64,000 nucleotides of DNA from Escherichia coli 042 (lineage in GTDB: Bacteria > Pseudomonadota > Gammaproteobacteria > Enterobacterales > Enterobacteriaceae). This document shows positions 25,901-31,900 of this stretch, piece after piece. Numbering within the stretch: position 1 is the first letter of the stretch; each line of letters starts with the position of its first letter. A program made the position numbers. The stretch lies in assembly GCF_000027125.1 (NCBI RefSeq), contig NC_017626.1, one strand, 5' to 3'.

Positions 25901-28900
25901 ACTGGCTGATGCTCGTCAAAAAAGGGAAGAGGCCAGAAAACTTGTTGCTGCAGGCATCGATCCCCGTGAACACAAACGTGCAGTGAAAGAAGAGCAGACG
26001 AAAGAGGCTATTACCTTTGAGTCAGTTGCCAGAGAGTGGCACGCAGTAAATAAAAAATGGACAGAAGAACATAGCCGACGGGTGCTGAAGAGCCTGGAAG
26101 ATAATTTGTTCCCAGCAATTGGGAAGCGGAGTATTGATAGTTTTAGTACGCGCGATCTCCTTGTCCCTATCAAAGTAGTTGAGGCTACAGGGCGTCTTGA
26201 AGTGGCTTCGCGTCTTCAGCAGCGTACCAATGCGATTATGCGTTGTGCAGTGCAAAGCGGTTTGATCGATTACAATCCTGCTCAGGAGATGGCTGGGGCA
26301 GTTGCTTCAAGTAATCGTGTCCATCGACCAGCACTTGAACTGAAACGCTTACCTGAACTACTCCAGCGAATTGATAGCTACTCCGGACGACCTTTAACCC
26401 GTCTGGCTGTTGAGCTCACGTTATTAATCTTTATTCGTTCCAGTGAGTTGCGCTTTGCCCGTTGGCCAGAGATCGATTTTGAAAGGGCAATGTGGACAAT
26501 CCCGGCAGAACGAGAAGCTATTGAAGGAGTGAAGCATTCGGAACGTGGCTCGAAAATGCGTACTCCTCATTTAGTGCCGCTTTCTCGTCAGGCACTGGCA
26601 ATCCTTAAACAGGTTCATAAGCTTAGTGGCGAGCGCGATTTTGTTTTCGTTGGAGATCACAATCCTTGTAAACCGATGAGTGAAAATACAGTGAACAAGG
26701 CGCTGCGCGTGATGGGATATGACACTAAGATTGAGGTTTGCGGTCATGGCTTCAGGACCATGGCATGTAGCTCGTTGATTGAATCAGGGCTGTGGTCTAG
26801 GAACGCTGTTGAAAGGCAGATGAGCCATATGGAGCGTAACTCTGTACGTGCTGCTTACATTCATAAGGCTCAACACTTGGATGAGCGTAAAATGATGCTG
26901 CAGTGGTGGGCAGATTTTCTTGATGTAAATCGGGTGAAGGGCGTCAGCCCATTTGATTTTGCCAAGGAGAAATGAGCTATGGTAATGAGGTTATAGATAA
27001 GAGAGAATACTACTTTATCGCGGGTTTTTAGTGGCTGGCAGGTCTAGATGAGTAGAAAATTCAAGTAATCTACACTCACTCGACTTAAAGATGGGGCCTT
27101 TTAAAAGGTCCTGCTTTGATGCTTACTGGAATGATAACCGTCCTAATCGTTGGCGAGTTTGTTCCATAAGTCCTGAATCCATAGGTTTTCTCTCTCATTG
27201 ATATTAAGTAGCACCCATAAATTTTATTCAAGGATAAGAGATAATGGCAAATTTTTCGGTAGCTGCGAGAACATTAATTCATTTAGGGGCGGAACTGATT
27301 ACCTCAGATGAAGTTGCTATAAATGAACTTGTTAAGAATGCTTTTGATGCCGAATCTAAACGGGTTAGGATAAATGTATTCATACCTATTTCGCATTCGT
27401 TAATAGATGACTGCCTTGCAATACTCGACAATAGTAAAAAAGAGGAAGCTCTTCAAGATGATATTTTTCATATAAAGAAAATGTTAATTGAAAGTGTTTC
27501 TGAACCTTCTATTGCAGCCCAAGTAGAAGAGTTGTTGCTAAACTTAACTTCAGATTCTAGCAAGGATGAAGCAAAAAAAATAGTCGAGTCGATAAACTAT
27601 ATAACAATCGAAGATTCTGGTTGTGGAATGGATTTAGCGACACTTGAAACGGTATTTTTGGCAATAGGCACTCCCTCTAAAGTAAACTCTGAAAGTACAA
27701 AAGACTTAAATAGAAAAATCCTAGGCAATAAAGGTATTGGACGTTTAGCAATGATGAGACTTGGGGATATTGCCAACGTTACATCTTGGGTTGAACAAGG
27801 TAGTGCCCATGAAATTGAATTCGACTGGCGAATGTTTGACGATCCTGAAAAAATAATCACCGATATTGAATTTGAAATAAAACCGACCACTTGTCCAAGG
27901 CCAACACCTTCAGGGACTGTAATAAAGATAACAGCACTTAAAAGCTCTTGGACTGAAGAAAAAGTTCGCGAAAAGCTCGTGGGTGATTTTTTTAGAAGGT
28001 TACAAAACCCATTTGTGATGTCATTGGATGAAGGTAGCTCCGATAACACAAAAAAAAATAAAAAGAATAGAACTGTAGGCTTTCCAATAGATGTTCATAT
28101 TAATGGAGGAACTCGAATACCTATCGAAGGTATGAAGAAAGTGTTAACAGATTTAGTTCAGGCTGATATGGAGCTCTGGTTTGACCCAAACGGGATTGGT
28201 GATACACCTGAAGTTATTCTCCGTACGAGTTTGACTGACTACCAACGTGGAAATGAACCTGAAAATACTAATAGAACAATAGAAGAAGTAACACATGTTT
28301 TAAATGTTAATTTTGAAGCACTTAAGAAAATTGGCCCCGTAAGAGCTACTATTAGATGGTTTAATAGAGAACGGTTACGCCAGCAAGCTACTTTGCATGG
28401 TAACTGGAAAGCAGCGAAGGCCGAATTAGATTTATGGTGTGGAGGAATAGCAATATATCGAGATGGTTTTCGCATTGGATTTTCTGGACAATCAACCGGC
28501 GAAGACTGGCTGGGACTAGATAGTTCTGCTCTTAAGAGAGGAGGTTTTGCTGTAAACCGTATTCAGACTGTCGGTGCGTTAGAGATTTCAAGAAAAGAAA
28601 ATCCCGGTTTGGTTGATAGATCTAATAGAGAAGGATTGATTGAATCACCAGAATCCAATCTTGTAAGAGATATGCTGTCGAAATTTGCTATTGATGAACT
28701 TCGTCGCTACATCGGTCATGAAGGGCAAGAAGAGAAGAAAGCACGTCTAAATGATATAGTTGAAAGCGCTCCTGCAACTATACGCGCTCGGATACTGCAA
28801 GCTGAGCAAGGACTCACATCTATAAGGTCTAAGGTTCCCGCAGATGTTCAAGAATCAGTACAATCAATCGCAAATAATTTACACTTTATAAAAAATGAAG

Positions 28901-31900
28901 TAACTCGTTTTGAAGAGGCTAGCAAACTAGCAACAGAGAGACGTGAGGATATTCTTGAACTTGCTGGTGTTGGAACCGTAATGTCTGGTGTACTACATGA
29001 GCTCACTAGGACAACAGGCCACACTCGACAGCTGTTACAAAAGTTATCTAAAGATGAGTCTCCTGGTACTAAAGCTTTATTAACGAAGCTAGATTCGGAA
29101 ATTAAAGCGATCAATACGCGACTTCGACAGTTAGATCCTTTAACACCTTCTGGAAGGCATCGCAAAGAAATATTTAATTTGTCAGCATTGCTGAATACTA
29201 TATTAGAAGGGTATGGAGCTCGCTTTGAACGGCATAATATAATTCCAGAATTCAAAATCTCTGGAGTTGATGATACTCAACCTGTCGAAGTAAATATGGT
29301 ACGTGGTTTTGTTAGCCTTGCAATTGAGAATTTAATTACAAACTCGGTTTATTGGGTTCAGCAGGGGGGGAGAAGTGATCGTCGTATTACTTTAGAACTA
29401 GATGCAGAATCTAGGACATTAACTTTGCGTGATAATGGGCCAGGTATTTCTCCTGCAGATAAAGACAGAATTTTCACTGCAGGATTTACAATGCGACCTA
29501 AAGGGCAGGGTTTGGGTCTTTTCATTGCAGCTGAAGTGGCTACCTATCATGATGCGAGGCTTTTGTTGGACTCTGCTGATGAGGATGGCCGATATAGAGG
29601 TTTTGTCTTGGAGCTTCCAAAGGAATGATTATGGATATTCAAAAGTCATTTACTGAATCAAAAATTTTAAAAGTAGCGATCGTTGACGACGATTTGTCCG
29701 ATTTAATTACTATGGACGATCTGAATACTATAGACAAGGATATTGCCAGTTTGCTTGGTGATCCATCCGATCCTGATTGTGAAAGTTACCATGAACTACT
29801 AGCATCTGAAGGCTATGATCTTGACGAAATAGAAGATCTTGCTCAACCTCTTTCAAATAAATCAATTAGAGAAAAAGCTCCTGAGCGTCTAAAAAATGCG
29901 GCAAATAAAATTATCGAATTTCGTTATGATAACGCCAAGCCAATTAGACGTGTTAAACAATTACTACTGGAAGCTGGCATTTTAGAGGATAATATTCATT
30001 ATTATTTTAGCCCTGAAATACCTAATGAAGAGTTTTATGATCTTTTAGTGATAGATTACTTCTTGGTAAAAAATTCCTCCAAGCATACTTTACCTTTTAT
30101 CAAAAAAATACTCTCAACTCATGAAAAGGCACCAAAGCCTTTACAAGTTATTCTGATGTCGACTTATGAGGCAGAGTTAAAAGCAGAATTCAGGAATATT
30201 CGTCCCGAGATAAGAACTTCAAGCTCAAGAATGAGAATCATGAGCAAACCAATGTCTGATGATGATTTAGTATACTGGCGCTCTGCTTTGTTCCAGTTAT
30301 CTTCAGATCGACAATTTGTCGATGCAGTAGAAAAATTTGTTACTGAAACAATAAGTGGTTTTCAACATGCTGCACAAGAACAAGCTAAAAGATTATGGGA
30401 GCTTGATCTTCAGGCAATGGATATTCTCCATGAAGCTGCAACATCTGATAATGATGATTTTTGCCGCTATGTTGAAGAATGTCTAAGTAGACAATTATTA
30501 ACGGCTCTAGAAGAATGCTCTGGTATAAGAAAATCATTAGGTGTTTTAGGTGAATCATTAATAAAACATAGAGCTAACAACGTAATTGCGCCTGTTACTG
30601 AAATTGGTGATTCGAGGGCGGCAATTAGAACACTAATGAGGAGTATGGAATGGCGTGGGGGAAATACCCCTAGCATGACAGAGTTTAAAGACCCTAAAGA
30701 CAGAGCAAAGTGGATTCAGAAAAATCTGAGATTTGGAATGGTACTAAAATCACCAGATGATAAAAGATGGCTTAATTTAACTCAAGCGTGTGATCTTGCA
30801 CAAACAAAAGAGGATAATTTAAATTCGGTATCTCTCTTGCTTATTAGTGGTTCCTATGCTCGGCCAGTTGGACGTGAGAATGGGCAATCATTAGTGTATT
30901 TGAACACATCATTATCTGATGCAGGTAGTGAGGTTTTGTGTTGGGATGTACGTAATGTTCAAACGCCCTCAATATTTGATTTTGCTCAAACGTTTTATAA
31001 TGGCTGGTCAATTACTGGAGAGCTTCGTCTAGACCAGGCTCAAAGTATAGCTGCTTTATATAGTTCTCGAACTTTAAGGGTTGGTCTTCAAAAAAGGCTA
31101 AGTAGCTGGTGTCTTGATGGTAAAGCTTTATTCATAAACAAATTAAATAACAGCGCTCCAAGTGATAAAATCGAGGGTACGACTATTTCTGGTCATGCGA
31201 TGAATCGTGGTAAACCCGACGAAGTACATATCGATAAAGATAGCATGATAAAGCTTCAAAGAGATTTTCCTAATAGTATTAATAAAATATCTCTGAAATT
31301 ATATATGGGAATGCAGCTAAAGCCTGGTTCAAAAAACCAAGAAGAAGGTATTTTGATTTATTGTGCTGAAAAGCCGGAGAATATAGAATCACTTCGTAGG
31401 GCTATTAATGATAATGATTTTTTAAATCGTGATGTTAATCAAAATAAAGTGGTAATAGCTCTATGGCATAAGTGATTTGATTTATTGCTAATTTATCAGG
31501 TGTATTATTTTCTCAATGTGAGCTAATTATTTCTTTATTAGCTCACATTGATATCCATTTATGTTAAATGATAAGGGGAAATTGTACTATAAAATATAGA
31601 CCAGATTAATTTACCCCTTCTTTTTATTTATGGCAAATTGCGCATGAGCCTCCGCCTTCATCTTCCCCATAAATTTCATCAATATCAATGAGAGTCTCAC
31701 CAGGGCGTAGTGGGTTAATGATTTTTTTCGCTTTGAGTCTGGCTTGCCGCTTTTCAAAATCAGTGACAATTTGAGCAATTCTTTCAGGCTCCTCAAGTGA
31801 CTCTAGTGATTCACCTTTAGTCCAAGTAAAGGGAGAACCATGTTCAATTGCATTTTTTTCATATCGTTTAGCTTCTTCAAATGCCTCTGGGTGACGCTCT

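Follow-up and report, generated by a model that had tools for sequence, protein, structure and literature searches.

A sensor kinase and a receiver protein joined to the sspBCD genes of Escherichia coli 042: a possible phosphorelay partner of phosphorothioate-based defence

Introduction

This study concerns two neighboring genes of Escherichia coli 042, here called A and B, which encode a soluble sensor kinase and a receiver protein, and the relation of these genes to the Ssp defense genes that lie beside them. They were found in a stretch of 64,000 nucleotides from contig NC_017626.1 (assembly GCF_000027125.1), which I will call the window. Directly after B, and convergent with A and B, come sspD, sspC and sspB, the single-strand DNA phosphorothioate (PT) modification module. 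I will argue that A and B are very probably linked in function to Ssp, and on balance I favor the view that they form a phosphorelay-gated sensor/effector module of SspBCD-based PT defense, a third type of partner beside SspE and SspFGH.

Ssp defense has been described in two forms, SspABCD-SspE and SspABCD-SspFGH (PMC8092258; Xiong et al. 2020). Both contain the same SspB/C/D module as the window, where A and B lie in the place that effector genes otherwise take. The outputs differ, SspE being a PT-stimulated GTPase-nickase and SspFGH an ATPase/FtsK-like complex, whereas A and B, which have no PADLOC similarity to SspE, F, G or H, are predicted to work as a His-Asp phosphorelay whose output domain has a toxin fold. 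Of 2,678 sspBCD loci, about 85% lack both SspE and SspFGH (PMC8092258). In Acinetobacter baumannii, 5,518 of 5,530 Ssp loci are without SspE, and in global clone 2 a histidine-kinase two-component pair lies beside the nuclease-less Ssp locus (PMC12421847). A reappraisal of PT systems (NAR 2024) mentions no kinases, receivers or MORC proteins, and my search of the literature found no paper that tests the pair or names it as an Ssp component.

Judged by sequence, the pair is a peripheral member of the HEF_HK (PF19191)/Response_reg_2 (PF19192) family, which Bellieny-Rabelo et al. (2021) recognized in silico, finding 91.6% linkage of the two proteins over 644 regions (PMC8011034). That purely computational study found C5-methylase, Vsr and HNH_2 enriched among the neighbors, proposed descent from paraMORC ATPases, and left the receiver protein's C-terminal part without a fold; Ssp, phosphorothioation, DUF4007 and PAPS reductase go unmentioned in it. 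A and B share the family's outline: a kinase with HATPase_c_3, DHp and HATPase_c parts ("group 1") next to a receiver protein of about 620 aa, both soluble, encoded by adjacent genes, linked to DNA-modification defense and related to paraMORC ATPases. The clade of the window lies at the edge of both family models. HEF_HK scores 0.065 for A, with 6 of 14 homologues at E ≤ 0.1 and 1 of 14 at ≤ 1e-3, and Response_reg_2 scores 4.6e-4 for B, with 6 of 39 members at ≤ 1e-3. What sets the clade apart is its neighborhood, in which SspD/C/B replace the methylase-type restriction-modification (R-M) genes (C5-methylase, Vsr, HNH_2) typical of the family.

A second relative is Ambrosia, a system validated in P. 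aeruginosa and encoded as AbrR-AbrA-AbrB-AbrC-AbrD (bioRxiv 10.1101/2025.09.30.679545, a 2025 preprint). Its parts are an XRE protein, an N6-adenine methylase, the HSP90-like/histidine-kinase protein AbrB, the 209-aa REC protein AbrC and the HNH protein AbrD, and defense requires all five genes, the GHKL Asn and the receiver Asp (same source). AbrB also combines HATPase_c_3 with HATPase_c, and its N-terminal 399 residues (Table S1) are homologous to A (BLASTP E 1e-23, with 28% identity across 370 aa, and 56% across the first motif); in both systems a kinase-receiver pair sits inside a modification-based defense locus. AbrC, which has no toxin-fold domain, has no kinship with the B family apart from the REC fold (by hhalign, a probability of 0.1%), and the N6-adenine methylase, HNH nuclease and XRE regulator of Ambrosia are absent from the window. 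The pair is thus related to Ambrosia on the kinase side only. Given these two relatives, it cannot be called wholly undescribed, as a first-pass annotation of the window had thought it might be.

The same annotation saw in A and B a self-contained two-gene system, perhaps a variant of Detocs. Detocs consists of a TPR sensor kinase (DtcA), a stand-alone buffer receiver (DtcB) and a receiver-PNP effector (DtcC). The likeness is one of outline, a cytoplasmic kinase followed by a receiver fused to an effector in phage defense. The two-gene pair has no PADLOC match to Detocs (E ≤ 0.01), A matching only the REase_II and MzaB GHKL models and B no model at all, and it has no TPR sensor, buffer receiver or PNP effector; it is tied to a DNA-modification module and Detocs is not. 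Another candidate, the HATPase + REC system of the DefensePredictor paper, proved not to be this pair, since the TPR and purine phosphorylase that accompany it make it Detocs-like. From the canonical two-component system the pair has both halves, the H, N, G1 and G2 boxes in A and the Asp pocket in B.

Association of the Pair with ssp Genes

Relatives of B were gathered by homologue search, profile search, scans of genomes, metagenomes and plasmids, and look-ups of gene context. The profile search, over 1.84 billion representatives, returned 354 proteins at E ≤ 1e-3, nearly all of them 615-720 aa long. In all 25 loci with enough flanking sequence (the window counted), ssp genes adjoin A and B, from E. 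coli to the actinobacterium Nocardioides. Three short contigs, including that of locus L018, were uninformative and stand outside the 25. The adjacency persists down to about 25% identity, the sampled relatives of B spanning profile E-values from 0 to 6e-13, and PADLOC confirms SspA-D in the two most distant loci, one of them actinobacterial (L034). Among 5,426 complete genomes of E. coli, 9 have the pair, and these are also the 9 that have this sspBCD. The setting is a defense island, as the first-pass annotation had it; the idea of a two-gene system standing by itself gives way, on these counts, to a single five-gene cassette of A, B and sspD-C-B.

A and B are themselves adjacent in every locus, so that the separation of the two genes in other genomes, named beforehand as grounds for abandoning the proposal, was not encountered. 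The arrangement relative to the ssp genes varies (Table 2). In three loci, L021 (1-11848), L026 and L027 (18-11875), sspF, sspG and sspH lie directly upstream of A on the same strand (PADLOC SspG 3e-217 and SspH E 0 in L021 and L027), from which it follows that A and B can coexist with a full SspFGH arm, much as SspE occurs with SspFGH.

Table 2. Orders of A, B and ssp genes among the loci.
Order	Loci
Convergent (as in the window)	Pectobacterium atrosepticum, two Pseudomonas, L016, L022, L023
Collinear, sspB-C-D-(A)-A-B	Pseudoxanthomonas, Dokdonella, Xanthomonas campestris, L010, L013-L015, L028, Nocardioides zeae (XRE-sspA-B-C-D-A-B)
Collinear, A-B-(sspA)-sspB-C-D	L017, L019, L029, L031/32, L033
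Divergent	L030
sspF-G-H-A-B	Polaromonas plasmid pPNAP02 (L021; also convergent sspDCB), L026, L027

Across 15 loci the divergence of A follows that of B closely (Spearman 0.94), whereas neither follows SspB, SspC or SspD (rho 0-0.4, not significant). Since A and B diverge together yet track none of the modification proteins, they form one unit that changes places between divergent Ssp modification modules. SspE and SspFGH are likewise swapped among divergent sspBCD modules (PMC8092258).

Defense genes cluster by chance in islands, and the RefSeq label of A is a plain "sensor histidine kinase". One might accordingly suppose that the pair is an independent defense or signaling system that merely shares islands with Ssp, or even a housekeeping two-component system. 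I consider this very improbable, in view of adjacency in 25 of 25 loci over two phyla and five gene orders, often within a single operon at spacings of 0-10 nt, the confinement of the pair to 9 of 5,426 E. coli genomes, where it is found in a low-GC leuX island, and the lack of a DNA-binding output domain. Nor did the sample contain any close homologue pair lacking ssp genes within about 15 kb. So strict a co-occurrence with sspBCD may mean that the module needs PT, as SspE does, or that it is toxic without PT, as SspFGH is.

A search of IMG/VR gave no relative of B, and a single plasmid-borne copy turned up, that of Polaromonas pPNAP02. A second homologue search with a broad alignment did not reach Acinetobacter, and the connection of the pair to A. 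baumannii comes from a match in AFDB together with the remark in PMC12421847.

Several loci have further genes nearby. In L018 (1-4345, a short contig) an HNH_2 gene comes after a distant A-like gene and a long B-like one, an arrangement that agrees with the HNH_2 association reported in 2021, recalls AbrD of Ambrosia, and suggests that certain clades pair the long receiver protein with a nuclease encoded separately. A gene resembling an SRA/HNH type IV restriction gene adjoins the cassette in P. xantholysinigenes (L008 6303-7430; PADLOC mREase_IV 7e-20), a HEPN-domain gene does so in L017 (4533-5450), and in L027 the next gene, on the opposite strand, encodes a PbeA-like/type IV REase-like helicase. 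An ArdA anti-restriction gene lies between the integrase and sspB in L015 (1597-2250). In L014 (2928-5837) genes for proteins of 214 and 754 aa intervene between sspD and sspA; neither matches any PADLOC model, that of SspE included, the larger has a faint match to a DndB domain, and the two may be another Ssp accessory.

The Sensor Kinase

A is made up of a paraMORC-type GHKL ATPase (aa 1-260), a conserved middle block (aa 364-465), a coiled coil (about 490-575) and the DHp and CA domains of a histidine kinase (Table 1). Pfam finds HATPase_c_3 at 118-203 (E 1.5e-7) and again at 21-46, HATPase_c at 691-793 (E 2e-12), and HEF_HK weakly at 583-634 (i-E 0.065), a match that spans the invariant H585-E586. 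No TPR was found by Pfam. The nearest families to the N-terminal GHKL part are BbrUII/HgiDII-type restriction enzymes (NCBIfam 7e-19), the type II restriction model of PADLOC (REase_II, 5e-12) and MutL. A profile search of the PDB gave histidine kinases over 523-785, from DHp onward (LvrB 6e-14), and Hsp90-family ATPases at the N-terminus.

Conservation was judged from an alignment of 14 homologues with identities down to 32%. Invariant in all are the N-terminal Bergerat motifs I-IV (E28/N32/D35, D124/G126/G128, G161/K163/G164/G166/R167, G224/T225) and the kinase boxes: H585-E586, E695/N696/N700 (N), D730/N731/G732/G734 (G1) and G756/G758/L759 (G2). A has no membrane segment (highest 19-residue Kyte-Doolittle mean 1.49). 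The earlier description of A as a soluble protein with two GHKL modules agrees with all this, and every motif string quoted with it occurs in the translations of A and B, both of which are open reading frames with the coordinates given at that time. To judge from its residues, A retains a hydrolysis-competent MORC-like GHKL ATPase and a complete histidine-kinase core.

Each half of A has a match among PHROG families of unknown function (117-284, phrog_6203, 2e-21; 556-784, phrog_8137, 2e-27), and phages therefore encode relatives of its GHKL and kinase parts.

Two homopolymer tracts in A, A8 (27566-27573) and G7 (29358-29364), show 1-nt deletions in three of the nine E. coli assemblies, in which the gene is annotated as split. 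Phase variation by way of these tracts is disfavored. In one of the three assemblies, G>A and C>T differences are confined to GATC sites, for which reason the frameshifts are probably nanopore artefacts.

The Receiver Protein

Residues of B are numbered here from the ATG at 29625, whose overlap of 4 nt with A had been reported before. That codon exists, and the two genes are tightly coupled from whichever start is chosen (a gap of 2 nt from ATG 29631), but the ATG at 29631 is the likelier start, since RefSeq uses it, homologues begin there, and the Shine-Dalgarno sequence AAGGA at 29619-29623 is spaced for it.

The N-terminal part of B folds as a receiver, as the first-pass annotation had supposed from receiver-like motifs, and its Asp/Asp/Asp/Ser/Lys pocket is complete. 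Response_reg_2 matches it weakly (E 4.6e-4), and D21/D22/D23, D144, S179 and K208-P209 show no variation among 39 homologues. B has no membrane segment (highest 19-residue Kyte-Doolittle mean 0.69), and no PNP domain was found in it. Relatives of B in UniRef and AFDB are labeled "Response receiver domain-containing protein".

The remaining 400 residues or so had been said to contain no recognizable motif. This holds for Pfam, which finds neither PemK nor CcdB; it does not hold for structure, because the conserved core of this part is a domain of the MazF/Kid/CcdB fold, with a kinship at the level of fold only. The core has six strands and a long terminal helix, and the fold match was placed on residues ~369-489 accordingly. 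Over 115 sequences G371 and C389 are invariant, and conservation of T386, D390, R468 and R485 is 90% or more. The last 120 residues or so are variable, and distant relatives leave the profile near position 490-510. B differs from MazF, Kid (PemK) and CcdB and from ToxN, AbiQ and CptN in having no sequence or profile similarity to them, no antitoxin gene (the A-B operon contains no small open reading frame like one), a domain fused to a receiver, and conserved residues of its own, among them the invariant Cys. The profile of B found nothing meaningful by sequence search of the PDB, and Foldseek against AFDB50 returned B's own family alone, including proteins of Acinetobacter baumannii, Salmonella and Pantoea. 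A similarity noticed by eye, between B 466-475 (ELRLDQAQSI) and both the catalytic R73/D75 region of Kid (VRCDQPRTI) and DQVKSI of MazF, was dropped (hhalign below 1%).

Whether the C-terminal domain of B is an effector seems to me an evenly balanced question. The other choice would be a regulatory two-component system, in which A senses infection and phosphorylates B, and B controls the Ssp genes, their activity or a separate nuclease instead of acting as a toxin. The homology of A to AbrB lends this some weight, the authors of the Ambrosia study favoring transcriptional control as the mechanism (bioRxiv 10.1101/2025.09.30.679545), as do the HNH_2 nucleases that adjoin long B-type proteins in other clades (L018; PMC8011034) and the sspFGH genes directly upstream of A in L021, L026 and L027. 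I nevertheless think it unlikely. Pfam, NCBIfam and PADLOC recognize no DNA-binding domain in B; AbrC, the receiver of the system on which the analogy draws, resembles B in its REC fold and no further; and the inspected flanks of most Ssp-linked loci hold no extra nuclease gene. The conserved core of about 120 aa has, in its invariant Cys and its Thr, Asp and Arg residues that hardly vary, the look of a catalytic or ligand-binding site, and gene orders that are convergent, divergent or on either side of the ssp genes are too diverse for one fixed promoter-operator arrangement.

A Possible Mechanism and Its Alternatives

The residues of A and B make it probable that the pair is a working phosphorelay. 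All those used in His-to-Asp transfer are kept, which is in accord with the cytoplasmic phosphorelay first envisaged, except that the pair does not stand alone. MORC and MutL-type GHKLs are ATP-dependent dimerizing clamps on DNA. The N-terminal GHKL part of A would, by analogy, be an ATP-driven dimerizing clamp that reads DNA, an idea suggested by the fact that GHKLs of this type otherwise head restriction enzymes of the BbrUII/HgiDII type. Its likeliest cue would be the presence or absence of the host's PT marks on the DNA. Since A and B do not diverge along with the Ssp proteins, a reading of marks is preferred to the binding of an Ssp protein, and I propose only tentatively that the PT status of DNA is the input to A.

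The state of the clamp would then pass through the coiled coil to DHp and switch on autophosphorylation of His585, from which the phosphoryl group would move to Asp144 of B. Dimerization of the phosphorylated receiver, or release from autoinhibition, would assemble the toxin-fold domain in active form. MazF, Kid and CcdB act as dimers. The active domain might attack nucleic acid, or an enzyme that acts on nucleic acid, and so stop phage replication or abort the infection. Sulfur for the modification could come, without sspA, from the host's IscS, as reported for the Ssp systems of E. coli 3234/A and V. anguillarum (PMC8092258). Taken whole, the scheme of a MORC-like GHKL clamp that reads the phosphorothioate state made by SspBCD and drives, through a His-Asp phosphorelay, a receiver-fused toxin of the MazF/CcdB fold is possible, and I regard it as rather doubtful in that full form.

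A number of points tell against the sensor/effector view. The mechanism of A and B is inferred, and entirely so for the signal that A would sense. The output domain of B is a putative toxin by its fold, but hhalign gave the 115-sequence profile of B a probability of 0.15% against MazF/Kid/EndoA/ChpBK/SaMazF and 0.4% against CcdB, none of the 39 members of the B family matches PemK or CcdB in Pfam, and T386, C389, D390, R468 and R485 could not be mapped, with the tools used, onto the known active site of MazF or Kid. B is perhaps a regulator or adaptor and not the terminal effector, because long B-type proteins adjoin HNH_2 (L018; PMC8011034) and Ambrosia needs its HNH protein. The three loci that also carry SspFGH mean that the pair may be an add-on rather than a restriction arm. 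Finally, the loci were recruited through similarity to B, and the methylase-linked branch of the family is barely sampled.

Those same three loci bear on a further alternative, that A and B are a guard, a back-up abortive-infection module that monitors the integrity of the Ssp machinery or PT marks, as when a phage inhibits Ssp, and in a second line of defense lets loose the toxin-fold domain. The toxin-like fold would suit such a role, and the anticodon nucleases that accompany type I R-M enzymes offer an analogy; around BREX and related systems, moreover, minimal histidine kinases with fused RNase effectors have been reported as auxiliaries (PMC12839542). A guard is nonetheless distinctly unlikely, because in the window and in most loci the pair is the sole non-modification partner of sspBCD, leaving no first line to back up, and because the failure of A and B to co-diverge with SspB/C/D argues against a specific surveillance of one protein by another.

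The Island of E. coli 042

The features of the island are collected in Table 1. RefSeq gives its order as integrase, "sensor histidine kinase", hypothetical protein, PAPS-reductase family protein, hypothetical protein, DUF4007 protein and an IS110 fragment. A (39.0% GC) and B (35.9%) are AT-rich compared to the flanking core genes (53-54%), as had been seen earlier. Among the six island proteins (integrase, A, B, SspD, SspC and SspB) PADLOC finds no match to SspE, F, G or H. The island is without sspA, and it contains no methylase, XRE regulator, short REC protein like AbrC or HNH nuclease.

Table 1. Features of the leuX island, with positions in the window.
Feature	Position	Strand	Basis or remark
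leuX tRNA-Leu(CAA), integration site of the island	25438..25522	+	ARAGORN
P4-type tyrosine integrase of the island	25722..26975	+	NCBIfam NF007246 E 1.3e-82; RefSeq "tyrosine-type recombinase/integrase"
Gene A, soluble sensor kinase, 794 aa	27244..29628	+	RefSeq "sensor histidine kinase"
A, N-terminal GHKL ATPase, HATPase_c_3/paraMORC type	27244..28023	+	Pfam, NCBIfam, PADLOC, conservation, PDB
A, middle block (FNR, YRDGFR, DWL, NRxQ, NREGL), strongly conserved	28333..28638	+	Homologue alignment; also in Ambrosia AbrB
A, His585 codon, predicted autophosphorylation site, H box VLHELTRTT	28996..28998	+	H585-E586 invariant
A, catalytic (CA) kinase domain: N, G1, F and G2 boxes	29314..29622	+	Pfam HATPase_c; boxes invariant
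Gene B, receiver protein and candidate effector, 614 aa (616 aa from ATG 29625)	29631..31475	+	RefSeq "hypothetical protein"
B, receiver (REC), a helical insert of ~95 aa replacing helix 1	29667..30254	+	Acceptor Asp144 codon 30054-30056
B, four-helix linker region, aa 212-316	30258..30572	+	AlphaFold secondary structure; no fold assigned
B, conserved core, MazF/Kid/CcdB-like fold, aa ~369-489	30729..31091	+	Fold match
B, variable C-terminal alpha/beta subdomain, aa 494-616	31104..31472	+	Structure model
15-bp perfect hairpin between the stops of B and sspD	31513..31551		dG -22.9 kcal/mol
sspD, PAPS-reductase-family ATP pyrophosphatase, Ssp modification module	31624..32481	-	PADLOC SspD E 1.4e-140
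sspC, large ATPase, Ssp modification module	32456..35800	-	PADLOC SspC E 0, 1451 bits
sspB, DUF4007 protein, Ssp modification module	35781..36671	-	PADLOC SspB E 6.9e-115; RefSeq "DUF4007 family protein"

The hairpin between B and sspD (z -5.4; none of 200 shuffles equally stable) is probably a bidirectional terminator common to the two convergent operons, and a simple terminator scan overlooked it because its loop is 9 nt long. No direct repeat of the 3' end of the leuX tRNA occurs elsewhere within the window. Just past sspB lies a fragment of an IS110-family transposase (about 37267-37374, RefSeq), beyond which are a gene for a LacI-type regulator and PTS genes of intermediate GC content (0.46). 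Elsewhere in the window, among core genes (argI, rraB and an acetyltransferase gene are near), a stretch of 33% GC holds an open reading frame of 503 aa (9760-11271) that has no match in NCBIfam and may be a separate small islet.

Significance

The existence of the HEF_HK/Response_reg_2 family (2021, in silico) and of a relative of the kinase in Ambrosia (AbrB, 2025 preprint) was already known. What is new here is the linkage of A and B to ssp genes across phyla and the first assignment of a fold to the output domain of B. PADLOC v2 recognizes neither protein as an Ssp component.

A known effector accompanies no more than about 15% of 2,678 sspBCD loci (PMC8092258), and A and B offer a candidate for the missing arm that can be cloned. 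If the full scheme of a PT-reading clamp and a receiver-fused toxin is true, this would be the first system of the R-M type whose "restriction" arm is a phosphorelay-gated toxin and not a DNA nuclease. It could also provide a partner for part of the orphan sspBCD loci, about 85% of the total, including the nuclease-less Ssp of A. baumannii global clone 2. MORC-like GHKL ATPases would gain a defined signaling output, and three fields so far kept apart, those of DNA backbone modification, two-component phosphorelays and effectors of the toxin-antitoxin type, would be joined.

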